Below, in pieces: positions 3,176 through 52,912 of a DNA stretch of 64,000 nt; positions within the stretch are counted from its first letter, which is position 1; each line of letters begins with the position of its first letter. A program made the translations under genes and the position numbers. Under the pieces are notes generated by a model. It was not told where the DNA came from and made no database searches. It was given only the letters and a program-made list of their open reading frames with translations. This DNA comes from an uncultured Verrucomicrobiae bacterium (GTDB lineage: Bacteria > Verrucomicrobiota > Verrucomicrobiia > Limisphaerales > Palsa-1400): positions 256,001 through 320,000 of the forward strand of contig CAVPOM010000007.1 in assembly GCA_963707025.1 (NCBI GenBank). Direction: 5' to 3'.

Positions 3176-4608
3176 AGCGATCCCTTGTTTTCATCATCGT
3201 AATTGCCGCGGCCATCGGCGGCGGATTCTGGTGGTACAAGCACCATAACGCCGCCGTTGAGCCGCCGGCTGCCGCGGACCAAAGCCCCCAAGTCACCCAC
3301 GACGCCCAGGGCAACACCGTGGTCAGCATGAGTGACGACGAGCAGGGGGACTTGGGGATCGTCTTTGGCAACCCGGCGGCCGGGCAGTGGAGGCAGGAAG
3401 GCAAAGGCTCCGCCCCGGCGCTCCACCCGCCTGCGCTGGAGGGCGTCCTCATCCCGCGCGACGCCGTGGTGCTGGTGGAAGGCGCGAGCTGGGTTTATTT
3501 GATGAACAAAGACAAGGGCGGAGAAGCCTTCACCCGCATAAAAGCCCCGTTGGACCGGCTGACCGACGCCGGATGGTTTGTGACGGGAACCATCAAGACC
3601 AACGATTACATCGTTGTCACAGGCGCGCAGAAGCTCCTTGCAACAGAACTCAAACCGGCGGGCGCCGAGGAGAGCACACCCACGGTCGTCAGTGTCCAGA
3701 CCAACGCGCTCCAGCAGGCCGCACTGCATCGTTACGTGCAAGGTTACGGCACGGTGGAACCCGCGCCCGCCACGACCAACGCTTCGGCCGCGAGCGTGTC
3801 GCTGGCTGCGCCGGTGCCGGGCGTCATCACCAAGGTCGCCGTGGTGGAAGGCCAGCACGTCGAAAAGGGCGATTTGGTGGCGGAATTGAATTCAGGCACC
3901 TTGACACTGGAGAACGCGGCACAGGAAGTGGCGCGGCAAAGGCAATTATACGCGCAAACCAACACCTCGCTAAGAAACTTGCAGAGCGCCGAAGCCCAAG
4001 TGGCCTTGTTGCGCGTCCTCGCGCCCATGTCCGGCACGGTTGTGCATGTCAATGTCAAACCCGGTCAGTCAGTGGATTTGCCGACGGTCGTGGCGGAAGT
4101 GATGGATTTGAACCGGCTGGTGGTGACCGCGGCAATTCCGGCGGCGCAAGCCGGCGAATTAAGAACCGGGAATCCGGTCGAAGTGTTGACCGGGCCTCCG
4201 GTGACGGCGGACCTTGCCTACATCAGCCCGACGGTGGACACGAACAGCGACACGGTGCTGGTGCGAGCGTCGTTGCCGGTGGGCGGCGGTTTGCGGCCTG
4301 GACAATTCGTTCCTTTACGCATCGTGACGGCGGTTCACACGAACTGTCTGGCAGCGCCGGCCGAAGGGGTGGTGATGGATGGGACCGGCCAAAGCGTCAT
4401 CGCGCTGGTCAAGGGCAACGAGGCAACGCAAACGGCGGTGCAGACCGGTTTGCGGGAGAACGGCTGGATTGAAGTCGCCGCCCCGGGACTGAGAGCGGGC
4501 GATGCGTTGGTGACGGTCGGCGCCTACGGCCTGCCGGCGACCACGAAAATCCGCGTTCAGAATGCCGCGGGCGGCGAAACGTCCACCAATTCGTCCAGCG
4601 CCAAATGA
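3172..4608 (+). CDS. RND efflux periplasmic adaptor (MFP) with an extra N-terminal partial MFP module
   Basis: N-terminal TM helix; APVPGVITKVAVVEGQHVEKGD and APMSGTV lipoyl halves; LRPGQFV; VQTGLRENGWIEV. Confidence 0.9.
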   Translation: MKRSLVFIIVIAAAIGGGFWWYKHHNAAVEPPAAADQSPQVTHDAQGNTVVSMSDDEQGDLGIVFGNPAAGQWRQEGKGSAPALHPPALEGVLIPRDAVVLVEGASWVYLMNKDKGGEAFTRIKAPLDRLTDAGWFVTGTIKTNDYIVVTGAQKLLATELKPAGAEESTPTVVSVQTNALQQAALHRYVQGYGTVEPAPATTNASAASVSLAAPVPGVITKVAVVEGQHVEKGDLVAELNSGTLTLENAAQEVARQRQLYAQTNTSLRNLQSAEAQVALLRVLAPMSGTVVHVNVKPGQSVDLPTVVAEVMDLNRLVVTAAIPAAQAGELRTGNPVEVLTGPPVTADLAYISPTVDTNSDTVLVRASLPVGGGLRPGQFVPLRIVTAVHTNCLAAPAEGVVMDGTGQSVIALVKGNEATQTAVQTGLRENGWIEVAAPGLRAGDALVTVGAYGLPATTKIRVQNAAGGETSTNSSSAK

Positions 4609-7600
4609 AGCCCGATGTCATTTCGCCTTTGGGCCGGTTCGCCACAAAGCACGCGCTGTCCATCACGTTCGTCGCGGCGGCCTTGTGTCTGGCGGGAATT
4701 TTCTCCGCGCTGCGCATGCCGTCGTCGGTTTTTCCGCAGACCAATTTTCCGCGCGTCGTCATTCTCGTGAACAACGGCATCATGCCCGCCGACGAAATGA
4801 TGGCGACGGTAACGCGGCCCATCGAAGAGGCGATGAAAGACATTCCGGGCGCGCTCACCGTGCGTTCGGCCACCAAGCGCGGTTCGGCCCAGATCAATGT
4901 CTTCTTCAACTGGCATGTGGACATGTCGCAGTCCGAGCTGTATGTGCTGGGGCGGCTCTCGCAAATCCGCAGTGATCTGCCGGCGACCGCCGACACGGAA
5001 ATTGAGCGCGTGACGTTCTCGGCCTTTCCCATCATTGGCATCAGCCTCACCAGTTCCAGCCGCGACATCATGTCGCTTTGGGAGACGGCGAATTATGAGT
5101 TGAAGCCGCGTTTTCTCCAAATTCCCGGCGTGGCCCGCGTGGAAATCCTGGGCGGCCGGGAGCCGGAATTTCATGTGGTGGTTGACCCGCTGAAATTGCA
5201 GGCCGCCGGCCTCTGCTTGGCAGGACGTGTGCGACGCGCTAACGAAGAACAACCTCATCGCGCCGGCCGGCATGATGGAGGAAAATTACCATCTTTACCT
5301 GACGACGGTGGACGGGCGCGTGCATTCGGTGGCGGCCATGGAGGATTTGGTGATCGCGGTCCGCGGCGGCCACCCCGTGCAAGTCAAGGATGTGGCGCGT
5401 GTCGAACGCGGGCCAAAGCCGGTCTTCCAATCCATCACCGCTCAAGGCCGCGAGTCGGTGCTGTTGAACATCCTGAGCCAGGCCGACGGCAGCACGCTCG
5501 ACATTGCCACCGCGTTGAAAGCAAAACTTGAGCAACTCCGGCAGGAATTGCCGCCGGATATGCGTCTGGCGTTCTATTACGACCAATCGCTCTTCGTGCG
5601 CGATTCGGTGGGGAGCGTTTGGGACGCGATTATTTTCGGGCTGATTCTGTCGGTGCTGATTCTTTATTTCTTCCTGAAGAATTGGGGCAGCGTGTGGACC
5701 GCCATCGTCACCATTCCGATTACGGTGCTGATCACGCTGGTCGCCATGAAACTGGCCAATATGAGCTTCAACATGATGACGCTGGGCGGCATCGCGGCCT
5801 CCATCGGGCTGGTGATTGACAACGCCATCGTCGTGGTCGAGGCGATGTGCGTGAAGATCGCGGCGGGGCGGCCGCGGCTGGAGGGAATTCAGGAAGCCAT
5901 CCACGAGATACTTTATCCGCTGGTCGGCTCGACGCTGACACCGGTGGTGGTATTCCTGCCGCTGGCGTTTTTGTCGGGCATTACGGGCGTGTTTTTCCGG
6001 GCGCTGGCGCTGACCATGGTGGTCTCGCTGCTCACCTCGCTGGTTCTGGCCCTCACCCTGACGCCGTCGCTGGCCGCCTGGTTCATCCGCGAGCGCGACC
6101 AACCGGAGCCCGGCCGCGCGCCCGGCGGTCTGGAGGGCGGCTTTTTGCTCCGGCGCGTCATCCGCGTTTACGAATGGGCGCTGCGCTGGGCGCTGGCGCA
6201 TCGCTGGCTCAGCTTGCTGGCCTGCGGCGTGGTGCTGGTCGCTTCCTTTTTCATTTACCAGCAGTTGCAGTCGGATTTTCTGCCCGATTTTGACGAAGGC
6301 GGTTTTGTCATTGATTTCTGGGCGCCCCCGGGCACGAGTCTGACCGAAACATCGCGCCAGCTTGCGGCGGCGGAGCAAATGTTGTCGGCCAACCCGGACG
6401 TGGAGAGTTATTCGCGCCGGCTCGGCGCGGAAATGGGCATGTTCATCACCGAACCGTATCGGGGCGACTTTGCGATCAAGCTCAAACGCGAGCGCGAGCA
6501 TTCGACCGATGAGGTTATCGCCGCCTTGCGCCACACCTTCAACGAGCAATTCCCCGCCTTCCGCTGGGAGTTTCCCGGCATCCTGACCGATGTCATCGGC
6601 GATTTGCAGTTGACGCCCGATCCGGTGGAAATCAAATTGTTCTCCACCGATTTGAAATGGCTGCGGCAGGTCGCGCCGCGTGTGGAAGAACAAATAAAAG
6701 CGATGCCGGGCGTGGTGGACACATTCGACGGCCTGACGGAAACCGGCCCCTCCATCAATTTCCGGGTGCGCCCCGCCGACGCCGCGCGGTTTGGCTTGAG
6801 CATCCAGGACATCGCCGCCGCCGTGAACACCGCGATGCTGGGCCAGGCGGTGTCGTCCGTGTTGGAAGGCGACCGGGTGGTCAGCATCCGCGTGCTGGCC
6901 AATCCGGCGAGCATCAACCACCTGGCCGGTTTGAGCGAACTGCCATTGCGGGCGGCCAACGGCACGGTGGTGCGGCTGGCGCAAGTCGCGGACGTGGCCC
7001 AGGAGCCGAGCGAAGTGGAACTGGTCCGCGACGATTTGCGCCAGGACATCATCGTCTCCGCCCGGCTCGAAGGCCGCGATTTGGGCAGCGCGATGACAGA
7101 AATCCAGGACAAGTTGAGCCAGGACCAATGGCTGCCGGCGGGCACGGTGGAATACGGCGGCCTTTACCAGCAGCAGCAGGAATCTTTCCGTAATCTCATC
7201 ATGGTCCTGCTGGCCGCCATCCTCCTCGTGTTCACCGTGCTGCTGATCGAATTCCGCTCCTTCTACGAGCCGGTCGCCATTGTGTTTGGCGCGGTGCTGG
7301 CGCTGTTTGGAACAGTGGCGGCGCTCTGGATCACGGGCACCTCGTTGAACATCGTCTCCTTCCTGGGCGCGATCATTGGGGTCGGCATTGTGGCCAAGAA
7401 CGGCATCCTCATGCTCGACTTTGTGGATCATCTCCGCACGCAAGGCGTGCCGCTGGAAGAAGCCCTCGTGCGCTCCGGCCATCGGCGGCTGCGCCCGGTG
7501 TTGATGACCTCGCTGGCGGCGGCCCTGGGGATGCTGCCCTTGGCCTGGGGCATCGGCAGCGGCGCCGAGATGCTGCGCCCGCTGGCCATCGCGGTGATTG

Positions 7601-7713
7601 GCGCCCTGTGCATTTCCGTGCTGCTCTCCCTCGTCGCCACACCGGCGGCGTATTACGTCCTGTTGCGCCTGCGCGAAAAAAAGGCCTTTCAACCAGTGGC
7701 GCCGCAGGGGTAA
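4605..7713 (+). CDS. CusA/CzcA/AcrB-family RND efflux permease (frameshift near 5215)
   Basis: ORF 4605 (FPQTNFPRV, VTRPIEEA) joins ORF 5227-7713 (GLVIDNAIVVVE, RRLRPVLMTSLAAALGMLPLA). Confidence 0.92.
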
Positions 7714-7739
7714 GGCGGCGAACGCCGTTCAGGAACGGC

Positions 7740-7901
7740 TCAAGGTTTGCGGAGGCGAACGCGCCCGGCGCGAATATCCTGCTCGCCGCGCTCAATCTTG
7801 GCCTTGAACTCGTCGGTGAATTCCAGATTGTCCTCCAGCATGTTTTCCAGCCAGTCAATTAAGGGTAAGCCTATACGAATCCTGACTTCGCGTCCCTTCA
7901 T
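7740..7901 (-). CDS. Small hypothetical protein, antitoxin-like C-terminus
   Basis: [57 protein letters not shown] overlap with the stop of the upstream dehydrogenase. Confidence 0.35.
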
Positions 7902-9437
7902 CCGCCGAAGCGGATGCCCTGGGCCAGGGGGAGTTCGGAGGAATAGTTGATGGTGACGGTTTGGCGGCGCATGTAGTTTTTCCAGGCGTCGCTGCCGCTT
8001 TCCCGGCCGCCCCCGGTTTCCTTTTCCCCGCCAAAGGCGCCGCCGATTTCCGCGCCGCTGGTGCCGATGTTGACGTTGGCAATGCCGCAGTCGCTCCCGC
8101 GCTGGGAGAGGAATAATTCGGCCTCGCGCAGGTCGTTGGTGAAGATCGCCGAACTCAACCCTTGCGGCACGGCGTTGTGCCAGGCGATGGCTTCCTCCAG
8201 TTTCGCGTAGGGTATCACATATAAAATTGGCGCGAAGGTTTCCTCCCGCACGATGCCTGGCGTCGGGGCCGATCCGGACCAGGCACGGGCTGACGTACCG
8301 GCCGCCGGGATAGTTGCGTCCGCGCAACGGTTCGCCGCCGTACAGAATTTTGCCGCCCTCGCGCCGCGCGCGCCGCAAGGCCCGCCTGCATATCTTCCAC
8401 CGCCGCCAGATTGATCAGCGGGCCTATGCAGCGTGCCCGCTTCGAGGGGATTGCCCACGGGGGTCTGGCGGTAGGCGCGCAGCAGGCGCCCGGTCAACTC
8501 GTGTTCAATGGATTCGGTGGACGAACAGGCGCCGGGTGCTGGTGCAACGCTGGCCGGCCGTGCCGACGGCGCCGAACAAAATGGCGCGCGCCGCCAGTTC
8601 CAAATTGGCCGAGGGCGCGACGATGATGGCGTTGTTGCCGCCCAATTCGAGCAGGACCCGGCCCAGGCGGCGCTGCACCTGTTCGGCCACGTGCGCGGCC
8701 CATTTTGGTGGAGCCGGTGGCGGAGACGCAGGGGAAGGCGCGGGTCGCTGCGCCATTTGCTCGCCGACCGTCGCGCCGTCGCCGATGACCAGGCTGAAAA
8801 TGGCCGGGTCCACCTGGTTGGCGCGGCAGACGCGTTCGGCAATTTTGATGGTGGCAATGGCGCAGAGCGGGGTTTGGCTGGAGGGTTTCCAGAAGGTGGC
8901 GTCGCCGCAGACGGCGGCCAGGGCGCTGTTCCAGGCCCAGACGGCCACGGGGAAATTGAAGGCGGTGACGATCCCGACAATGCCCAGCGGATGCCATTGC
9001 TCGAGCATGCGGTGCCCGGCCGCTCCGAGGCGATGGTCAGCCCGTAAAGCTGCCGGGAGAGGCCCGATGGCAAAATCGCAGATATCAATCATCTCCTGCA
9101 CTTCGCCTTCGCCTTCCGCCAGGATCTTTCCGGTTTCCAGGGTGACCAGCCGACCCAAGGTCGGCCTTGGCGGCGCGCAGGGCGTTGCCGAACTGGCGGA
9201 CCATTTCGCCGCGTTTGGGCGCGGGCATGTTTTGCCAGGCGGCGAAGGCCGGCCTGGCGCGCGCGGCGGCGCTGTTCGTAATCGGCCCCGCGTGGCCGTG
9301 CGGACGCTGGCCAGCGTTTTGCCGTCAATGGGCGAGATGCTTTTCAGGAGCGGCCCGCCGCCCATCCATTCCCCGCAGAAAACGCCGGGGTTGGCCGGTT
9401 GCAGGCCGAGTTTGTCAAATAGAATATTTGGCTTCAT
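7898..9437 (-). CDS. pcd: ALDH7-family aldehyde dehydrogenase (piperideine-6-carboxylate/aminoadipate-semialdehyde dehydrogenase), multiple frameshifts
   Basis: Pieces in several frames: [93 protein letters not shown]. Confidence 0.88.
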
Positions 9438-9482
9438 GTCAATGCAATTTCGCAAAGTCCCTTCCAAAAAATCCGGCATTTT

Positions 9483-10882
9483 CTAGCACAGTCCCCGGCA
9501 GGCCCGGTCCAGGAGTGGCAGCGCCTCGGCGATCACCTCGTCTTTCACATCCAGCACGGGACGCAGACGGATGGAGCGTTCGCCGCAGCGCAGGACGAGC
9601 AGGCCCGACTCGTAGGCGCCGTTCCACAGTTGCGTCGCGCAACTGGCGGTTGGGCAGATCGAACGCCAGCAGCAGGCCGCGTCCGCGCACGGCGGTGAGG
9701 GCGGGATGTTTTTGGGCGAGCTGGCGCAATTCGGCCAGGAGGATGCGCCCCGGCGCGGCGGGCGTTGGCCACCAGTTTTTCCTCTTCAATGATGCGCAGG
9801 AAATGGGTCGAGCGGACATAATCGCAAAAATTGCCGCCCCAGGTGGAACTGATGCGGCTGGGCAGGCGGAAGACAGTTCTCCTTGCACTTCGTCCAGGCG
9901 CGGCCCGGCCATGACGCCGCAGACCTGCGCTTTCTTGCCAAAGACCAAGCAGGTCGGGCAGCACGCCAAAATGCTGGCAGCACCAGTTCGGCCGGTCACG
10001 CCCATGCCGCATTGGACTTCGTCAAAGATGAGCAGCAGATCGTTCTCATCGCACAAGCGGCGGAGCGTTTGCAGCAATTCGCCGCGGAAATGGTTGTCCC
10101 CGCCTTCGCCCTGGATCGGTTCGATGATGATGGCGGCGAGGTCCGCCCCCCGTTGGGCGAGAAGGTCGCGGATTTGTTCCTCGGCCTGCTTTTCCTTTTG
10201 CCGGACGTTTGCCAGGCGCTCCTCTTCCGGCAGGGAAAAGTCAAGGAACGGGTTGCTCACGCGCGGCCAGGGGAACTTGGCGAACAGATCGATCTTGCGC
10301 GGGTCGGTGTTGGTCAGGCTCATGGTGTAGCCGCTGCGGCCGTGGAAGGCCCGGTCGAAATGCAGGATCTCCGTGCCCGCGTTCGCCCCGTCCGGCCGCC
10401 AGGTTCTGCCGCACTTTCCAGTCCATCGCGGCCTTGAGCGCGTTCTCCACGGCCAGCGCGCCGCCCTCGATGAAAAAATAGCGCTCCAGCGGCGGCAGCC
10501 CCATCACCCGCGCGAAGGTCTGGACGAAGGTGGCATAGGCCGTCGAATAAACATCCGCGTTGGCCACTTTGACCTTCGCCGCCGCCAGCAGGTCCGCCTC
10601 CACTTCCGGCCGGTTGAACTAGGGATGATTGAAGCCGATGGGCAGGGAGGCGTAGAAGGCGTAGAAGTCCAGGTAGCTGCGTCCGGTGGCGGCATCCACC
10701 AGGCGCGAGCCGCGGCTTTTCTCCAGGTCAATCACCAGCTTGAATCCGTCTGTCAAGATATGTTTTTCCAGCTCGGCGATGACCTGGCCGGGGGCCACCT
10801 CCGCCTCCCCGGCCGGGGCCGGCCGGGCCGGGGCGGATTTTGCCCCTGGGGGCCGCCGCCGCGGTGGTGCTTTCAGTTTCAT
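9483..10882 (-). CDS. lat: L-lysine 6-transaminase (class III aminotransferase), frameshifts plus one in-frame TAG
   Basis: HILTDGFKLVIDLEKSRGS, YLDFYAFYASLPIGFNHP, FFIEGGALAVENALKAAMDWK, IIEPIQGEGGDNHF, LLIFDEVQCG, FGKKAQVCG, RISSTWGGN. Confidence 0.88.
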
Positions 10883-42700: not shown

Positions 42701-45778
<3,078 letters not shown>

Positions 45779-45839: not shown

Positions 45840-45924
45840 GCTACACCCGTTACACCGTTACAGTTGTTGATTATCAACGGTTTACGAAAACTGCGCCCGT
45901 TACACCCCGTTACATTCTGTTACA
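45840..45924. repeat. GTTACA direct-repeat array around a palindrome
   Basis: GTTACA at 45849, 45857, 45899, 45909, 45919 (plus GCTACA at 45840); GTTGAT-t-ATCAAC at 45866-45878. Confidence 0.7.
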
Positions 45925-46110
45925 TCCAACCTACTGCCCTTCATCAGATCGGTCAGGTCTTCGATAAGCTGCTCGCTATCGTTGGCCCCTTCGATGCTGT
46001 CTATGATCTGCTCGACGGCCTCTCCCTCGTTTTTCGCTTCGGCCTCCTCTTGGGCCTCCGTTGCCTCGGTCTTCCGCAAGCCTCCAAGAATTGGAGATTC
46101 AAACTTTCAA

Positions 46111-46147
46111 TTGACATTTGACATAATAACGCTTACTTTAAGCGTTA
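46111..46147 (+). promoter_or_regulatory. Sigma70 promoter overlapped by a palindromic operator
   Basis: TTGACA(46111)-17 bp-TACTTT(46134); TAACGCTTA-ctt-TAAGCGTTA (46127-46147) covers the -10. Confidence 0.7.
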
Positions 46148-46158
46148 CACAGACGTTT

Positions 46159-46758
46159 ATGAATATATCAGCCGAAAATCTTGATGAAATCTTGAGCCGC
46201 CTGAATCGAAAAATGGTTTATGCGGAGGGCAAACCGCTCAATGTGGCGGTATGCGGAGGCTCTGCACTCATCGCCGTTGCTTTAGTGGCTCGTCCAACAA
46301 AGGATGTTGATGTTGTTGCACTCCTTCGCGTGAATCAGGCTAATGTCGAGATTCTGGAGGTCAAGAGTCTGCCTACAGATGTTGAACGGTTGGCTGCGGA
46401 AATCGGGACTGAATTAGGCATTCGGGAAGATTGGTTCAACTTCAATGCGAGTCCGCTGATCGCCTTTGGATTTCCGCCGAACATGACCTCGCGGCTCATC
46501 AAGAAATCCTACGGAATATGCTTGACAGTCTATTTCATCAGTCGCTTTGACCAGGTGCATTTCAAAATATACGCGGCCATGGACCCCAAGGACGGCACCC
46601 GGCACCTCAGCGACCTGCTTGATCTCAAGCCGAAGGAACATGAAGTGAGGGCCGCGGTCTCCTGGCTGCTCGGGCGGAAAGCCAGTGCGGAGTTCAAAGC
46701 CGCCCTCTGCCAAGTGCTGGAGCGAATTGGTTATGAGCGAATCGCTGAACAGATTTAG
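46159..46758 (+). CDS. DUF6036/AbiEii-like nucleotidyltransferase
   Basis: VCGGSAL and RPTKDVDV Pol-beta-superfamily motifs; DWFN; HFKIYA...RHLSDL. Confidence 0.8.
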   Translation: MNISAENLDEILSRLNRKMVYAEGKPLNVAVCGGSALIAVALVARPTKDVDVVALLRVNQANVEILEVKSLPTDVERLAAEIGTELGIREDWFNFNASPLIAFGFPPNMTSRLIKKSYGICLTVYFISRFDQVHFKIYAAMDPKDGTRHLSDLLDLKPKEHEVRAAVSWLLGRKASAEFKAALCQVLERIGYERIAEQI

Positions 46759-49700
46759 GGAAAAACTGAGCGAACTGGTACTGAACTTCGTTCTTGGGCA
46801 GTGGGCCGCCGTCGGCGTCATGGCCACCCGCACCTCGGACCAAGCGCGCGTCATAGACCCTGAGCCGTTGTTGCTGCTGACTTTGGAGGTTGCCCGGCAC
46901 GATCCACGCACGTTCGACGAAGTTCTCGACTGGCTTATTACGAACGGCCGATGGATCAATGTCACCCGACTTGCTGCGTTGTTTGAAGCGGACAGGATTT
47001 GCGCCCCAGAGGTATTGGGCGCTGTCGCGGCCACCCTGTCGCTGCACGACAAGACACCCAAATGGCGCAACTTGGCTGCCAGGTTAAAGCCACTCCCCGA
47101 CAAATCCCCGGAGGCGCTATTCCGCAAAAACGGCCAACCGCTGTTCCTGCCTGGTTCGGAGCCGGATGCCATTTTCAAATCCTATGGATTGCTCCGCACC
47201 CCTGTGCAAACGCGCGGACTTTCCTCCCCGGTTTTACCGTCGCGGACGTTGGAGTGGAGTGCCGCGAACTTCATGTTCAAAGCACGGGCATTATTTGGAG
47301 TGAGCATTCGCGCGGATGCTTTCACTCTTGTCGTGCTGCATGGGTCCTCCAATCCAACCCGCATCGCCCGCGAACTCGGCTATTCCCAGCGTCGCGTGCA
47401 AGATGCTTTGTTGGACATGACATCCGCCGGTGTTTTCCAAGTTCGGAATGTCGGCAATGCCAAGGAGTATTTTGCGGATTCCGAAAGGGTGTTGCGTTTT
47501 CTTGGCGCTCTCGAGGAAGGGATTTGCTGGTTTGATTGGAGAACTCAAGCCCGGGCCTTGAGCACCGTTTGGCGCCGCGTCTTCGCGATGCGTGAGGAGA
47601 ATTTAACGGCTTATATTTTGGAATCGGAACAGGAGAAAATCCTCCGCGAAGTAGAGAATGACCTGCTGCGGGCCATCCCCAAACGTCCCGCTGCCACACT
47701 TGCCGGCTCTGGCCTTCTGCCAGGGAAGCCCCAGGGTTTGATGGAAACAATACAAAGGACTTTACCGCCGTCTGGTGACTTCAAGTGGCAGCGGTTGTGG
47801 GTGGCCCGCGGAGGCAGAATCAGCCTCGCCGATGGCGGATTTCCATACCTTGCCACATTTCCGTGGGACACATCCCGTCCTGAAGTGGTGCCCTATGAGT
47901 CCATCGCCGCCATCCCATGCCTGGTCTTGTTGGGCGAGCCGGGGATGGGAAAGAGCCATGCCATCAGAGCGGCGAAGGAATCCGCTCAATCTTCAATGGA
48001 TGCCACGAAGGCGAAGTCGCTCTTTCTCGATCTTAAATCGTATGGAAACGAAGAACGGTTGAGGAAAGATTTGTTTGGTTCACCCGAGTTCCGGGGATGG
48101 TCCAACGGCGAATTTCAACTCCATCTTTTCCTCGACAGCTTGGACGAGGCGCTCTTGAATCAGCAAACCATCGCCGGTGTGTTGGCCGATGGGATCGGCC
48201 AACTCCCATCTATGGCAGGTTTGTCGCTCCGCATCGCTTGCCGGACGGCCGATTGGCCCTCGGAATTGGAGCAAGCCCTGAAATTGAAATGGCCAGAACC
48301 TGATTTCGGCGTGTACGAATTGGCCCCGCTGACCAGAAACGATGTCAGCGAAGCAGCCAAAGGCAGTGGGATTGACGCAACTGCTTTCCAGCGCTTGATT
48401 GAGGACCATGACTTGGTTCCTTTGGCCTGCAAACCGATTACCCTCAAATTCCTGCTTCTAACCTTCGCGCGAGGCACCTTGCATGGTTTTAGCCAAAAAC
48501 AACTGTACGCGAAAGGATGCCGCATTCTCTGCGAGGAGCAAAGTCCTGCACGCAGACGGTCAAAAGGGGTCTGTACGCTCACCCCCGACCAACGGTTTCA
48601 AATCGCAATGCGCATCGCCGCGGCGACTATTTTGTGCCAACGGGACGCGATCTGGACGGCGGCAGAAAGCGGCGATCCATTGGAATCAGACGTGACCATG
48701 AACGAGCTGTGTGTGGGACCTTTCTCTGCAACAGGCGTTGCCCTCACCCGTGAAAACGTGATGGAAACGCTTTCAACAGGTTTGTTCTGTTCTCGCGGGG
48801 AGAACCGACTCGGCTGGGCGCATCAGACGTACGCCGAGTTCCTGGCCGCTCAGTTTCTTCATGACAGCAAGATGTCGCTTGAGAAAATGCTCAAGTTGTT
48901 GGTCTATCACGGAGATTCGGAAGGAAAACTGGTTCCGCAACTCCATGAAACCGCAGCCTGGCTGGCGACGATGGATGCCTCTATCCGTGAGGCTATATTC
49001 AAGACCGAGCCGGATATACTGTTGCGCAGCGACATTTCGTCCGCAGGCGATGAAGACAAAGAAGGACTTGTGAGAGTCCTGTTAAGACAACTCAATGATG
49101 GAGTCTTAGACAGCCTCCCCTCGCGTCAAAGGTGGCCAAAACTCAAGCATCCAAAAATGGCAGACCAACTCCGCCCGTACATCCTGGACCGGTCGAAGTC
49201 AATGAACGCCCGGTTGGAAGCAATCAACCTCGCTGAAGCTTGTGAACTGACGGAATTTGCCAACGACTTGGCGGAAATCGCGTTGGACCACAGCGAGGAG
49301 AGTCAGCTTCGCAAAGGCGCCGCTTTATTTGTGGCCCACCTCGGTTTGGCGACCGAAAAAGGGCGATTGAAGCCCCTGGTCCACCTATCCGCCGAAGAAG
49401 ACCCAAAAAACGATTTAAAGGGGTGCGCCCTCGAAGCGTGTTGGCCGGAGCAAATGTCCGGTGCTGAACTTTTTTCAGTGCTGACGCTTCCACCAGAGAA
49501 CGGGTTCTATGGCACGTACAAGCATTTCCTAGCGCGTCGGCTCATCGGCAACATAAAGGCGGAACATTTGCCACAGGCGCTCAGATGGGTGCGACAGCAA
49601 AAGCCACGACGTGGGCTTCGTCCTTCCTTTGGCAAACTACTAGAGGAGATCCTCAAAATTGCTGCTAATAATCTGGAGGGACCTGATGTGCTTGATGAGT

Positions 49701-51937
49701 TTTCAAGAACGATCCTGGATCGGCTGCGAAAGCATGATTTGGACATCCGGTCTGACGAGTGGCTGCAGATGCTCAAGACTGACGACCAACTGAGGTTGCA
49801 TATTGTCGAGACAATTCTGTGTGAACTTTCGCAAGCCAATGAGAGCCAGGGGTCGGTGACCATGTTCATGGGGGAGTGTCCGATACTGACTCGAAATGAT
49901 TTCAACTGGTTGGCGGATCATCTGGAGCGAGAAGACAACCGCGAGCGCCAGGCGGTGCTGGCGCAGTGGTTGCAGTTGGCTTGGATCAAAATGGATTGGT
50001 CGCAAACCGAAAGGATCATGAGTCTTGCGGAGAAAATCCCTGCCGCACACAAGCGATTCTTGCCCGACTTGAGTCCGATTGAACTTGGTTCAGAAAGAGC
50101 GAAAAGGGAGCGTGAAGAGTATGAAGCTCTCGCCAGCATCCACCAAGACGAAGCGGAAGCACAACAACCACTGGATCCGCCTCCCTATAAGAGGGTCCTG
50201 TCAATTCTGGAGCAATTCGAAGGCGGGAATACAGATGTCTTTTGGCTACTGGTCAGGGAACTCTGCTTGACAGCGAAGAGCAACTATTACGATAATGAAG
50301 AAGCTTCCGACGTTACACAATTGCCTGGTTGGAAGGAGGCGGATTCGTCAGTTCGAGGCCGGATCATCAAAGCTGCGGAAACTTATATCCGGGACAAAGA
50401 CGCCAATCCCGATGCCTGGTTTACGGAACCAAACATTGTCCATCTTCCGGCCGCAGCCGGCTTCAAGGCGCTTTATCTCCTTTACAAGGAAGCACCACTC
50501 CTGTTTCCCGCGTTGCCCGTCAGTGTTTGGAGTAAGTGGGTCGCAATCATTCTGGGTTATCCAGTATTTGATGAACTTGAACCCCACACGATTTTGACGC
50601 GAAAAGCCTACGAGGTCGTCCCGGAAGACACACTGTTATGGTTTGCGAAAGTCTTGCAAAAGGAGAAACGGGAATCCGCAGGACCGGCCGTCTTGAGCAA
50701 GTTGGGCGGTTTGTGGGACAGCCGGATTGCCGGCCTCGTTCTCCAAACCGCCAAAGACCCGGAAACCAGCCCGGATACTCTGGCAGACCTCCTCAAAGCC
50801 ATGCTGGGACAAAGGGAGACCGATGCAGTTTCACTTGCTTCATCGCTGCTTGATCTCCGCTCATCCGCCGATGAATTCAGCCGTCAGAAAGCGTTGGCTG
50901 CCGCTGAAATCTTGGTCGAGCATTCCCCAGGAAGTTGGAATGCGTTGTGGCCTTTGATTCTCGAGGATGGCCCTTTTGGGAGAAACTTCGTGGCCAGACT
51001 TGCTTACACTTATTTTCTCACGCCGACCGTGCTCCTTAATCAATTGAGTGAAGACCAAGTTGCAGAACTATATTGCTGGCTTGTCGGGCACTATCCGCAT
51101 GAAAAGGACAAGAGGCGCACCGGTGCCCATTTCGTTGGCCCTGAGGAAAAGATCGAGCGATTGCGCGATGGAGTGCTCCAACATCTTTCCGAGCGTGGAA
51201 CACCGGCGACCCTTTCTGCCATCGAATCCATCCAGAGCAGGTTGCCCAAATTGGATCTCAAGCAAGTGCTGTCACACGCCAAGGCGATCACACGCAAAAA
51301 GGACTGGCGGCCACCCACGCCCGGCGACTTGTTCGCTTTTGCCGATCAAAGGGATGCCCGCCTCGTCCGGGATGCCGATGAATTACTGGAAGCTGTCCTG
51401 GAGAGCCTCGCCAAATTCGGAATAAAACTCCAGGGGGAGACTCCCTTGAGTCAGTATCTCTGGAACATTGCCGACGACATATTTCGACCAAAAGACGAAG
51501 CCGCGTTTGCGGACCAAGTCAAGCTGCACCTCCAGACTGATCTGGCTTCATGCGGCATCATTCCCAAACGCGAAGTTGAGATTCGGCGAGGTCAGGAGAC
51601 GGATATCCATGTGGATGCGGTGGCAAAAGTGGAAGGCGCCTCATATAAAGCGGTTAGCGTCATTATCGAAACCAAATGCTCCTGGAACCCTGGATTGGAG
51701 AAGGACATGGAATCACAACTGGCCGGACGTTACCTTCGAGACAACCAATGTCAGCATGGAATCTACTTGGTGGGCTGGTTCACCAGCGACAAATGGGACG
51801 ATAAAGACTACCGCCGCAGGCGCTTGACGTCCTCCGACAAAAGTGCGTTGCAGGCGAACCTTGACGCCAAAGCAGAAGAGTTGTCCAAAGCGGGGATTAA
51901 GGTTCGGGCAATGATCCTGGATGCCAGCCTGCGATAA
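46733..51937 (+). CDS. Fusion protein: N-terminal partner/wHTH domain, NACHT (STAND) NTPase, helical repeats, C-terminal PD-(D/E)xK nuclease
   Basis: HTH NPTRIARELGYSQRRVQDAL; Walker A GEPGMGKS (47933); Walker B LFLDSLDE; IACRTADW; WAHQTYAEFLAA; C-terminal REVEI..ETDIHV..IIETK..QL..RYL..GIYLVGWF. Confidence 0.85.
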   Translation: MSESLNRFREKLSELVLNFVLGQWAAVGVMATRTSDQARVIDPEPLLLLTLEVARHDPRTFDEVLDWLITNGRWINVTRLAALFEADRICAPEVLGAVAATLSLHDKTPKWRNLAARLKPLPDKSPEALFRKNGQPLFLPGSEPDAIFKSYGLLRTPVQTRGLSSPVLPSRTLEWSAANFMFKARALFGVSIRADAFTLVVLHGSSNPTRIARELGYSQRRVQDALLDMTSAGVFQVRNVGNAKEYFADSERVLRFLGALEEGICWFDWRTQARALSTVWRRVFAMREENLTAYILESEQEKILREVENDLLRAIPKRPAATLAGSGLLPGKPQGLMETIQRTLPPSGDFKWQRLWVARGGRISLADGGFPYLATFPWDTSRPEVVPYESIAAIPCLVLLGEPGMGKSHAIRAAKESAQSSMDATKAKSLFLDLKSYGNEERLRKDLFGSPEFRGWSNGEFQLHLFLDSLDEALLNQQTIAGVLADGIGQLPSMAGLSLRIACRTADWPSELEQALKLKWPEPDFGVYELAPLTRNDVSEAAKGSGIDATAFQRLIEDHDLVPLACKPITLKFLLLTFARGTLHGFSQKQLYAKGCRILCEEQSPARRRSKGVCTLTPDQRFQIAMRIAAATILCQRDAIWTAAESGDPLESDVTMNELCVGPFSATGVALTRENVMETLSTGLFCSRGENRLGWAHQTYAEFLAAQFLHDSKMSLEKMLKLLVYHGDSEGKLVPQLHETAAWLATMDASIREAIFKTEPDILLRSDISSAGDEDKEGLVRVLLRQLNDGVLDSLPSRQRWPKLKHPKMADQLRPYILDRSKSMNARLEAINLAEACELTEFANDLAEIALDHSEESQLRKGAALFVAHLGLATEKGRLKPLVHLSAEEDPKNDLKGCALEACWPEQMSGAELFSVLTLPPENGFYGTYKHFLARRLIGNIKAEHLPQALRWVRQQKPRRGLRPSFGKLLEEILKIAANNLEGPDVLDEFSRTILDRLRKHDLDIRSDEWLQMLKTDDQLRLHIVETILCELSQANESQGSVTMFMGECPILTRNDFNWLADHLEREDNRERQAVLAQWLQLAWIKMDWSQTERIMSLAEKIPAAHKRFLPDLSPIELGSERAKREREEYEALASIHQDEAEAQQPLDPPPYKRVLSILEQFEGGNTDVFWLLVRELCLTAKSNYYDNEEASDVTQLPGWKEADSSVRGRIIKAAETYIRDKDANPDAWFTEPNIVHLPAAAGFKALYLLYKEAPLLFPALPVSVWSKWVAIILGYPVFDELEPHTILTRKAYEVVPEDTLLWFAKVLQKEKRESAGPAVLSKLGGLWDSRIAGLVLQTAKDPETSPDTLADLLKAMLGQRETDAVSLASSLLDLRSSADEFSRQKALAAAEILVEHSPGSWNALWPLILEDGPFGRNFVARLAYTYFLTPTVLLNQLSEDQVAELYCWLVGHYPHEKDKRRTGAHFVGPEEKIERLRDGVLQHLSERGTPATLSAIESIQSRLPKLDLKQVLSHAKAITRKKDWRPPTPGDLFAFADQRDARLVRDADELLEAVLESLAKFGIKLQGETPLSQYLWNIADDIFRPKDEAAFADQVKLHLQTDLASCGIIPKREVEIRRGQETDIHVDAVAKVEGASYKAVSVIIETKCSWNPGLEKDMESQLAGRYLRDNQCQHGIYLVGWFTSDKWDDKDYRRRRLTSSDKSALQANLDAKAEELSKAGIKVRAMILDASLR

Positions 51938-52340: not shown

Positions 52341-52589
52341 TCACACGGCGTGGGCGAGTGGGCGCACATGCAGGACGCTTTTCGCCGTGAGCGGCTCGAT
52401 TTGTGACTCCCGCACCGTCACGACGTCAACGGTCTCGCCCACCGCGTTAAACACCTCCAAGGTGTAACCTGGTTCCTGTTCCAGACGGCCTGGATGGTAT
52501 TCGACAATCGTAGCCACATCCCCGCGCTCAAGCCGATGCTTGGGCAGGCTGGCCTTTAGTGATACTCTGCTGAACATCTTATATTTCAT
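52341..52589 (-). CDS. DUF4926-domain protein
   Basis: RVSLKASLPKHRLERGDVATIVE...GYTLEVFNAVGETVDVVTV..SQIEPL. Confidence 0.8.
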   Translation of the reverse strand: MKYKMFSRVSLKASLPKHRLERGDVATIVEYHPGRLEQEPGYTLEVFNAVGETVDVVTVRESQIEPLTAKSVLHVRPLAHAV

Positions 52590-52912
52590 GTCTTTTCCGG
52601 ATAAAGCGTCACAAACTTGGACTTGCCCCCGGCGTGCTCGACCATCCAAATGGACACCACGCGCAAGGTCCGTCCATTCGGCCCTGTCAATTTGCCGCGG
52701 ATCTCATATTTGGTGCCATATTCGCCTCGTTCCAAAAATTTGGCTTCGTGTGGCAGCAATTGCGTTCGCAGGTCTGCCAACAGTCGGTCGGTGGTTTCCG
52801 GAATGTAACCGGCTCCAGCCAGAAAACCTGACTTGTCGTCCTCCGGACGACTCACCAGAAGATAGTCGCTGATCTTTCGGCGCGCAATAAAAGTATCAGG
52901 CCGCAATCTCAT
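52586..52912 (-). CDS. DUF6883-domain protein (toxin-like)
   Basis: IARRKISDYLL...DKSGFL...GY...EYGTKYEIRGKLTGPNGRTLRVVSIW...FVTLYP; ATGA-coupled to DUF4926. Confidence 0.78.
   Translation of the reverse strand: MRLRPDTFIARRKISDYLLVSRPEDDKSGFLAGAGYIPETTDRLLADLRTQLLPHEAKFLERGEYGTKYEIRGKLTGPNGRTLRVVSIWMVEHAGGKSKFVTLYPEKT

Follow-up and report, generated by a model that had tools for sequence, protein, structure and literature searches.

The locus and its genes

The window analysed here is a stretch of 64,000 nucleotides from the genome of an uncultured Verrucomicrobiae bacterium (assembly GCA_963707025.1, contig CAVPOM010000007.1, positions 256,001 to 320,000 of the forward strand). Directly downstream of uvrA (42701-45778), the window carries an operon of two genes: gene 1, which encodes a small nucleotidyltransferase (NTase), and gene 2, which encodes a long composite protein (Table 1). 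The N-terminal part of the gene 2 protein, termed here the N-module, includes a winged helix-turn-helix (wHTH) and is joined by a short linker to a core composed of a NACHT-type STAND (signal-transduction ATPases that have numerous domains) NTPase, a long helical repeat region and a C-terminal PD-(D/E)xK nuclease domain. The open reading frames (ORFs) and their translations give an overlap of 26 nt between the two genes. The GC content of 46101-51937 is 0.539, compared with 0.612 and 0.619 in the flanks. An earlier annotation of the window, made from the letters alone and referred to below as the sequence-only reading, described a GC-poor two-gene operon after uvrA with a 26-nt overlap and a second gene of 1734 aa without a stop, all of which agrees with the present analysis. 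The start that it placed at 46111 instead falls in the promoter region, the ATG of gene 1 lying at 46159.

The operon occurs twice in the genome. A second intact copy is found on another contig of the same assembly (G000 contig C8, 107378-113215; positions 4376-10215 of locus L155, minus strand), where it includes the promoter and a near-identical palindrome and is flanked by sequence that is unrelated to that of the window and is without informative Pfam matches. The ends of the single alignment between the copies, together with the unrelated flanks, define the extent of the unit as given in Table 1.

Table 1. Features of the operon (positions in the window; aa, residues of gene 2; strand "." where none applies)
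Feature	Position	Strand	Basis and remarks
Promoter-like site TTCAAA-18 nt-CATAAT, TG before the second hexamer	46098-46127	+	Consensus scan, 9/12 matches
Duplicated unit	46101-51937	+	Single blastn alignment to G000 contig C8 of the same genome, 92.5% identity over 5842 nt
Perfect inverted repeat TAACGCTTA-N3-TAAGCGTTA, candidate operator	46127-46147	.	Centre 21 nt before the NTase ATG
Gene 1, NTase	46159-46758	+	ATG start, 199 aa; DUF6036, AbiEii-like, Pol-beta fold
Gene 2	46733-51937	+	ATG start, 1734 aa, stop-free
N-module	46733-47677 (aa 1-315)	+	Helical domain at aa 1-~120, small beta part, winged helix, C-terminal helices
Winged helix	47258-47524 (aa 176-264)	+	AlphaFold2 model and fold match
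Fusion linker	47678-47764 (aa 316-344)	+	29 residues, low-confidence
NACHT-type STAND NTPase	47765-49072 (aa 345-780)	+	Partial EruA/HyoA matches, invariant motifs
Walker A, GEPGMGKS	47933-47956 (aa 401-408)	+	Fits GxxxxGK[ST]
Walker B, LDSLDE	48131-48148 (aa 467-472)	+	Fits D[GAS]hDE
Helical HEAT-like repeat region, presumed sensor	49073-51364 (aa 781-1544)	+	Weak profile matches
PD-(D/E)xK nuclease domain	51365-51934 (aa 1545-1734)	+	E1614, D1624, E1646, K1648

The NACHT-repeat-nuclease core

The core of gene 2 retains the motifs of a NACHT ATPase. Besides the two Walker motifs, CRT (aa 503-505) and HQTYAEFLAA (aa 697-706) are present as the sequence-only reading had it, and key residues of these motifs are invariant among homologues: in an alignment of 41 core sequences (alignment A2, to whose numbering 340 is added to obtain that of gene 2), the invariant positions are G64, G66, K67, D128, S129, D131, E132, R164 and H357, followed towards the C-terminus by E1249, E1274, D1284, E1306, K1308 and Q1322. 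The Walker B signature D[GAS]hDE is that defined for NACHT proteins in the sections available of a survey of bacterial NACHT (bNACHT) proteins (bioRxiv 10.1101/2022.07.19.500537). The Pfam NACHT model (PF05729) does not match the window protein; the homologues P0040, P0105 and P0133 reach 19.5-21.2 bits, short of the cut-off of 26.7, and the family is listed in a precomputed table for the homologues P0107, P0110, P0120 and P0121. The repeat region gives weak profile matches to alphaRep/HEAT proteins, and its counterparts in homologues give sub-threshold matches to HEAT_2.

The C-terminal domain is assigned as a PD-(D/E)xK nuclease. The motifs TDIHVD (aa 1623-1628) and IETK (aa 1645-1648), on which the sequence-only reading based the same assignment, include residues D110, E132 and K134 of an alignment of 43 nuclease domains (alignment A4), which correspond to D1624, E1646 and K1648 and are invariant; E1614 is nearly so. 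In an AlphaFold2 (AF2) model of the C-terminal 220 residues, with a mean predicted local distance difference test score (pLDDT) of 88.5, the D...(D/E)xK motif lies on the strands E111-119 and E123-135. The top structural matches of this model in VIA are Can2 (Z 8.4; root-mean-square deviation (rmsd) 3.6 over 112 aligned residues), McrC (8.3) and PaqCI (8.3), followed by BstYI (8.2) and BamHI (8.1), with NucS, Card1, NucC and HamA lower in the list. Nucleases of the restriction-endonuclease fold make up 39 of the 50 VIA matches listed, including all of ranks 1-20. The Z values are middling, and the Foldseek E-values are 2.5e-3 at best; it is the consistency of the list of fold matches, combined with the invariant D-ExK residues, that leads to the nuclease assignment. 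Searches of solved structures by sequence returned no match for gene 2, nothing meaningful with the nuclease profile and, with the core, alphaRep/HEAT matches only.

The core is an independent, single-gene family. About 100 homologous proteins of ~1400 aa cover the last 80% of gene 2 and are without the N-module. Other homologues cover ~69% of gene 2 and carry a different C-terminus, among them TIR (P0052), CHAT (P0069) and SIR2 (P0072) domains, which match the PADLOC models ThsB, CHAT and ThsA/LmuA/Dsr1. When metagenomes were scanned with the core alignment, 329 stretches were confirmed and 71 loci kept; in 69 of these, neither an NTase nor an N-module occurs anywhere, and the remaining two (L086 and L093) are fused forms in fragments. 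The C-terminal placement of the nuclease, taken by the sequence-only reading as a contrast to Avs3/Avs4, is real but is the rule across the whole core family rather than a peculiarity of this locus.

The NTase/winged-helix cassette

Gene 1 belongs to the Pfam family DUF6036 (PF19502; 26.0 bits against a gathering cut-off of 23.6), described in Pfam as a nucleotidyltransferase with function not known. The 199-residue protein carries CGGSA (aa 32-36) and TKDVDV (aa 47-52), the GGSA and TKDVD motifs of the sequence-only reading. Across 48 homologues, G33 of the GG[ST] motif and D49 and D51 of the DxD motif are invariant, as are R45, T47, R129, Q132, K136, H149 and D152. Models of AbiEii in PADLOC give weak matches over the catalytic motif (E 1e-3 for gene 1, and 1e-3 to 1e-2 overall), and PF08843 is listed in a precomputed table for the homologue P0325. 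The neighbours of the NTase in the ESM Atlas are DUF6036 clusters; one is auto-named as an AbiEii/AbiGii family, and PF08843 is present in 12% of one cluster. Gene 1 has no match in NCBIfam, a sequence-profile search of solved structures gave nothing meaningful, and DUF6036 is mentioned by no paper in the literature searched.

The N-module is predicted with confidence by AF2 (pLDDT 90.2; predicted template modelling score 0.91). The sequence-only reading had the first ~340 residues end in a winged helix; the fold is present within them, but the module continues past it to residue ~315. The winged helix resembles ArsR/MarR folds (VIA Z ~10; rmsd 1.9-3.8 over 68-78 residues), and a sequence search of solved structures with the N-module found ArsR-type wHTH matches only. 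When the first 350 residues of gene 2 were searched alone against 1.84 billion representative sequences, 1285 relatives were found at E<=1e-3, of which 126 reach E<=1e-30. Lengths fall within 330-370 aa for nearly all of them, and most are stand-alone proteins of ~340 aa. Beyond weak wHTH matches, no model in Pfam, NCBIfam or PADLOC covers the family, and it has no name in the ESM Atlas.

The NTase and N-module form an independent and widespread two-gene cassette. Scanning genomes with the N-module alignment yielded 464 confirmed stretches, from which 79 loci were kept and their six-frame ORFs searched with profiles built from the NTase and N-module alignments. The loci span the PVC (Planctomycetes-Verrucomicrobia-Chlamydiae) phyla, Acidobacteriota, Nitrospirota, Desulfobacterota, Hydrogenedentota and others. 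In 75 of the 79 (all except L045, L060, L070 and L073), the ORF immediately before that of the N-module, in the same orientation, encodes an NTase; the two genes overlap by 26 nt at 49 loci and by 32 nt at 23 (72 in total). In 76 of the 79 loci the N-module is unfused, the long fused form being confined to L001, L002 and L027. One locus (L043, 6134-9509) holds two NTase/N-module cassettes in convergent orientation.

The surroundings of the cassette, surveyed by a Pfam scan of 130 neighbouring ORFs, include genes of restriction and of abortive infection (Abi) or toxin-antitoxin (TA) type. A type I restriction-modification (R-M) gene is the nearest neighbour in 15 of the 79 loci, with hsdM (N6_Mtase and HsdM_N) upstream in 10 and hsdS (Methylase_S) downstream in 12. 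The usual order is hsdM, cassette, hsdS and then a gene of ~1017-1079 aa that is presumed to be hsdR. This order is found in L029, L030, L031, L047, L053, L059, L063, L065 and L068, and in part in L034, L049, L056 and L071. Other neighbours include Fic (L046, L069), AbiEi (L045, L050), Abi_2 (L075), PemK (L014), PIN (L073) and integrase (L026) genes; the AbiEi genes of L045 and L050 are true, separate neighbours of the cassette. Placement in or near R-M, Abi and TA genes is typical for abortive-infection and TA genes, and the position between hsdM and hsdS is like that of PrrC, which sits inside the hsdMSR genes of PrrI (as stated in a portion of PMC3710099).

A physical interaction between the NTase and the N-module is suggested mainly by the conserved gene overlap. 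Structure prediction of the pair, proposed as a check by the sequence-only reading, gave a score of 0.46 (0.47, 0.46 and 0.00 in three runs), compared with 0.00 for the best of three controls. The mark of 0.46 is reached by 116 of 157 solved complexes and by 2 of 215 mismatched pairs; scores up to 0.60 take in only 18 of the 157 solved complexes and both of the mismatches that passed. Agreement between the runs is at least 0% of contacts, with a pLDDT of at least 80 for the partner. The prediction is a mild nudge towards binding, and the conserved overlap weighs more.

The N-module is also found N-terminal to domains other than NACHT, including Schlafen/AlbA_2 (P0160), DUF5677 (P0141) and DUF1508 (P0265, grouped with P0213). 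Further fusions are P0125, P0167, P0183, P0227, P0247 and P0230, and several of the extensions have no Pfam match. These fusions are scattered over several places in the N-module tree; thus, the N-module behaves like a portable control module, which suggests that it regulates whatever follows it.

Fusion of the cassette to the core

The fusion in gene 2 joins a whole N-module to a whole core. The linker between them has a pLDDT below 50 at aa 320-332, and the unfused cores start with YxWxRFW, which aligns with FKWQRLW at aa 345 of gene 2, that is, right after the disordered linker. Both parts exist as separate families, which bears out the suggestion of the sequence-only reading that a TA-like transferase/HTH module has been welded onto a receptor resembling nucleotide-binding leucine-rich repeat (NLR) proteins.

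The fusion is real, old and maintained. As the sequence-only reading anticipated, homologues that span the junction near aa 340 exist: ten are full-length (1703-1782 aa, 37-76% identity, 98-100% coverage) and others are truncated by contig ends, for ~16 in all, most of them from Verrucomicrobiota. An NTase gene precedes every fused locus for which upstream sequence is present (the window, the second copy, L001, L027 and L086). In L002, the NTase in front of the fused gene (345-937) is spread over two ORFs, owing to a frameshift or an assembly error, and the fused gene is followed closely by one for a SIR2-TIR protein (6799-8169). The locus tags of P0272 and P0007 are consecutive. An independent contig from a peat metagenome, ~90% alike, is unbroken across both the gene 1/gene 2 overlap and the N-module/NACHT junction and has a compensated one-base deletion and insertion in the linker; with the intact second genomic copy, it speaks against the stop or frameshift at the junction that had been raised as a possibility in the sequence-only reading. 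In the sequencing runs, the share of words found is at most 0.13. Contigs from soil metatranscriptomes, 90-95% alike, cover parts of gene 2 and the promoter; RNA libraries can hold DNA and the contigs come from relatives, so these are not counted as evidence of expression.

Most fused forms group together. In a tree of the core (120 rows, IQ-TREE quick mode), 12 of 14 fused cores fall in one clade with 100% support, within which three unfused rows also sit, the unfused P0016 nesting inside. A tree of the N-module (148 rows, FastTree) unites 14 of the 15 NACHT-fused modules in a clade supported at 99%. P0133 and, in the core tree, P0098 are remote from the main fused clade, on long branches that join each other, and the N-module of P0098 falls inside the main fused clade; a second, independent origin of the fusion may have occurred. 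The fusion is rare. It is found at 3 of the 79 cassette loci and at 2 of the 71 core loci; of 401 genomes sampled from the phylum, 29 carry the N-module, and that of the window alone has it fused.

Both copies in this genome are constrained. The NTases of the two copies share 84% amino-acid identity with a ratio of nonsynonymous to synonymous divergence (dN/dS) of 0.33, and dN/dS is 0.12 for the N-module, 0.21 for the NACHT domain and 0.23 for the nuclease. All diverged parts other than aa 1301-1520 lie between 0.12 and 0.35, and such low ratios in two intact copies indicate purifying selection on both. The linker is the fastest-evolving part (dN 0.23). A tract of 99-100% nucleotide identity at 49100-50600 is probably the result of recent gene conversion. 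Residues 1301-1520 (50633-51292) differ in pattern, with dN of 0.035 against dS of 0.039 and 17 amino-acid changes among 23 nucleotide changes; this stretch of the repeat region may be a diversifying sensor surface, or the pattern may be small-number noise.

Promoter and candidate operator

The operon is preceded by a promoter-like site and a perfect inverted repeat (Table 1). The former is a weak call alone, as promoter-like sites in the region overall are no more frequent than in shuffled sequence; it sits at the left edge (46101) of the duplicated unit. The inverted repeat has counterparts elsewhere. Among 63 cassette loci surveyed over the 60 nt before the NTase start for arms of at least 8 nt with no more than one mismatch, an inverted repeat is found in 24, compared with 11 of 315 shuffles, and repeats with at least 9 matched pairs are found in 16 of 63 loci compared with 1 of 315 shuffles. 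In 18 of these 24 loci, the repeat is centred 20-22 nt ahead of the ATG. Many of these loci are close kin, so the number of different palindrome sequences, which is seven, is the fairer measure of independence. A palindrome that is fixed in position and variable in sequence has the look of an autoregulatory operator that co-evolves with its wHTH, and the N-module is a candidate to bind it.

Relation to known systems

The closest named relatives of the core are EruA and HyoA (NF058535 and NF058534; "NACHT domain-containing antiphage protein" in NCBIfam), which have in common with it the NACHT Walker A and D[GAS]hDE motifs, a long helical repeat region and, as in the unfused core family, a single-gene organisation. 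EruA has the same C-terminal domain, and the window protein matches positions 72-742 and 1036-1312 of its 1318-position model, to which the homologues P0105 and P0016 align nearly end to end. All 11 homologues tested match the EruA/HyoA models, with 160-277 bits. The window protein differs from EruA and HyoA by 344 extra N-terminal residues and by the NTase gene upstream. The antiphage paper behind the two names was not found in the full-text literature searched.

AbiE systems consist of an NTase/winged-helix pair encoded by an overlapping operon, with a palindrome at the promoter, and are found in defence islands. The cassette is alike in each of these respects: as in AbiE and MenAT, a Pol-beta NTase and a winged-helix protein are encoded by two overlapping genes, and, as in AbiE, a promoter palindrome suggests autoregulation, the genes are placed in defence islands and the NTase gives (here weak) AbiEii matches. 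The cassette differs in that its NTase is of ~200 aa and belongs to DUF6036 and not to DUF1814. The likeness to AbiEii and its HTH antitoxin drawn by the sequence-only reading is weak for the NTase and does not hold for the partner, which is no AbiEi homologue and is encoded in reversed gene order.

In HEPN-MNT (minimal nucleotidyltransferase) systems of TA type VII, the MNT gene lies upstream of and overlaps that of its partner, and the cassette likewise has a small NTase gene in front. That MNT and HEPN genes co-localise is stated in the same portion of PMC3710099. The cassette partner differs from HEPN proteins in that it is without the Rx4-6H motif (no histidine is invariant or nearly so in 41 N-modules) and that its wHTH alone matches solved folds. 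The cassette would work in the manner of AbiE or HEPN-MNT pairs, but its partner has neither the AbiEi domains of the one nor the HEPN motif of the other.

Avs (AVAST) proteins are likewise single polypeptides in which a STAND ATPase is combined with a nuclease effector and a sensor made of repeats, and they presumably work by the same logic, oligomerisation on sensing. The window protein differs in its C-terminal effector, its NACHT-type ATPase, its N-terminal wHTH module and its partner NTase. PADLOC-DB 2.0.0 (2023) has no family for gene 2 and none for four unfused cores, with no match to an Avs model. In what is available of the bNACHT survey (bioRxiv 10.1101/2022.07.19.500537), a C-terminal nuclease is an infrequent arrangement, and the supplementary discussion has separate categories for C-terminal effectors, for N-terminal wHTH "adaptors" and for a fused Pol-beta NTase. 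The main text of a STAND survey preprint (10.64898/2026.01.04.697583) contains no mention of nucleotidyltransferase, wHTH, Eru or Hyo; its supplementary tables may list the clade. The parts of the locus are of known kinds, and for their combination, a DUF6036 NTase with a partner wHTH fused to a NACHT nuclease, no named system is found in PADLOC 2.0, NCBIfam or the main texts of the literature searched, with the same proviso on supplementary tables. The sequence-only reading, which knew of no described system of this architecture, is upheld to that extent, PADLOC 2.0 and NCBIfam giving no full-system match.

Proposed mechanism and alternatives

The reading favoured here, with a probability of roughly 0.55, is that the locus is a composite, self-regulated defence operon of the abortive-infection type, which arose as a mobile NTase/winged-helix cassette had its second gene joined, end to end, to a free-standing gene for an EruA-like NACHT-repeat-nuclease. 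Family resemblance and genomic context point to the role in defence. The winged helix of the N-module would bind the palindrome and repress the operon, and the N-module would also bind the NTase, which may be toxic by analogy with AbiEii and MenT, and hold it in check. The HEAT-like repeats would sense a phage cue and the NACHT domain oligomerise with ATP; oligomerisation would bring the C-terminal PD-(D/E)xK domains together, and DNA would be cut. These four steps (repression, restraint of the NTase, sensing with oligomerisation, and DNA cutting) have precedent in related families. A fifth step is speculative: as the partner of the NTase is part of the receptor, activation could alter the N-module, free the NTase and lift the repression, such that one sensing event would fire two effectors, much as in the first of the two mechanisms put forward by the sequence-only reading.

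A bolder and tentative extension is that the DUF6036 NTase and its ~340-aa partner represent an undescribed abortive-infection/TA family of restriction operons, in which the partner is a portable control domain that puts immune effectors (NLR, Schlafen/AlbA_2, DUF5677) under the control of the NTase. At the present locus, the NACHT receptor would then be both autorepressor and antitoxin, and phage sensing would unleash the nuclease, free the NTase toxin and derepress the operon. As usually described, a bacterial NLR-type receptor is a single, self-contained protein; that of the window carries the DNA-binding partner of a TA-like transferase as its own N-terminus. The locus is a natural handle on how bacterial NLRs stay silent and are transcriptionally controlled, and on whether TA-type modules can be wired into dedicated phage sensors. 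Fused and unfused forms both exist, and the contribution of each half is therefore cleanly testable. The NTase/partner cassette, with more than 1000 representative clusters and a partner that has no Pfam family, is a candidate for defence in its own right.

Several findings weigh against the composite defence reading. The window protein scores 238 bits with the EruA model (cut-off 1000) and 181 bits with the HyoA model (cut-off 1200); at a quarter or less of the cut-offs, the core is a distant EruA/HyoA relative and not an equivalog. Neither the core nor the N-module has a model in PADLOC 2.0. The partner in the cassette is without an AbiEi domain, AbiEi families being absent from the N-module of the window and from 7 stand-alone members (E<=0.01-0.1), and the NTase gene comes first, the reverse of AbiE. 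Fold searches with the N-module model returned wHTH matches only, the first ~170 residues not having been searched as a separate model. In the alignment of 41 N-modules, not one Ser, Thr, Tyr or His is invariant, such that a fixed acceptor or HEPN-type site is not evident. One of the three runs of complex prediction scored 0.00. Among core loci that include the core N-terminus and at least 1.7 kb upstream, the cassette is present in 0 of 32; the unfused core is never found beside separate cassette genes, and hence there is no split form that would show a mutual need of the two halves. Finally, the flanks of the operon in the window are housekeeping genes except for a small DUF6883/DUF4926 pair.

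In an alternative, considered doubtful, an ordinary autoregulated TA or addiction cassette and an ordinary single-gene NLR are independent modules that came to share one reading frame when a stop codon between the two neighbours was lost in a defence islet. The fusion would be tolerated, perhaps useful only for co-expression or co-inheritance, with no signal passing between the halves. That both halves are complete and stand alone elsewhere, that they meet in a disordered and fast-evolving linker of 29 residues, that fusion is rare and that the unfused core P0016 is nested in the fused clade are all in keeping with this view. By contrast, fused proteins as little as 37% identical retain both halves and the NTase in front, the operon was duplicated in this genome as one unit, and the N-module is also fused before Schlafen/AlbA_2, DUF5677 and DUF1508, as favours the composite operon with a regulatory N-module.

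Compared with the composite reading, in which the NTase is a restrained toxin, an improbable variant casts the NTase as a regulator similar to that of type VII HEPN-MNT systems: it would nucleotidylylate the N-module and, in the fused form, the NLR and so hold the nuclease off, and interference by phage with the NTase or with nucleotide pools would release the receptor. This corresponds to the second mechanism put forward by the sequence-only reading. The gene order and overlap are as in MNT-HEPN pairs, it is the partner and not the NTase that becomes fused to effector domains, and the NTase and N-module are weakly predicted to be in contact (0.46 against 0.00 for the best control). The 41 N-modules, however, offer no invariant Tyr, Ser, Thr or His and no HEPN Rx4-6H motif, and the nearest sequence relatives of the NTase are, weakly, toxins of the AbiEii type. 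It is very improbable that the locus serves no defence and encodes an AfsR- or MalT-like STAND transcription factor with an accessory transferase to control a host process, since an N-terminal winged helix followed by a STAND ATPase and helical repeats, a palindrome at its own promoter and housekeeping flanks are set against an invariant C-terminal nuclease motif for which homologues swap in TIR, CHAT or SIR2, a core family that is normally without a DNA-binding domain, a cassette that sits in restriction operons and beside Abi and TA genes, and a unit that is GC-poor and duplicated.

Neighbouring features

Neither a tRNA gene nor an integrase is found at the flanks of the unit in the window. 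Just downstream, within the GC-poorer stretch, DUF6883 (52586-52912) and DUF4926 (52341-52649) are encoded by an overlapping pair of genes on the minus strand, which could constitute a further small pair of TA type. Between uvrA and the operon, and outside the duplicated unit, lies a minus-strand ORF (45900-46079) for a highly acidic protein of 59 aa with no Pfam match, which may be a remnant or no gene at all. The UvrA protein itself has a proline-rich, low-complexity insert of ~65 residues at about aa 450-515, which to our knowledge is not expected in UvrA. The heptamer CGTTACA occurs 7 times in the whole window compared with 2.0 expected, a count reached in 0 of 100 shuffles, and five of the copies lie within 300 nt between uvrA and gene 1 (45840-45927 and 46143-46149). 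The copies form two clusters 50 nt apart, and the array is outside the duplicated unit save the copy inside the palindrome.

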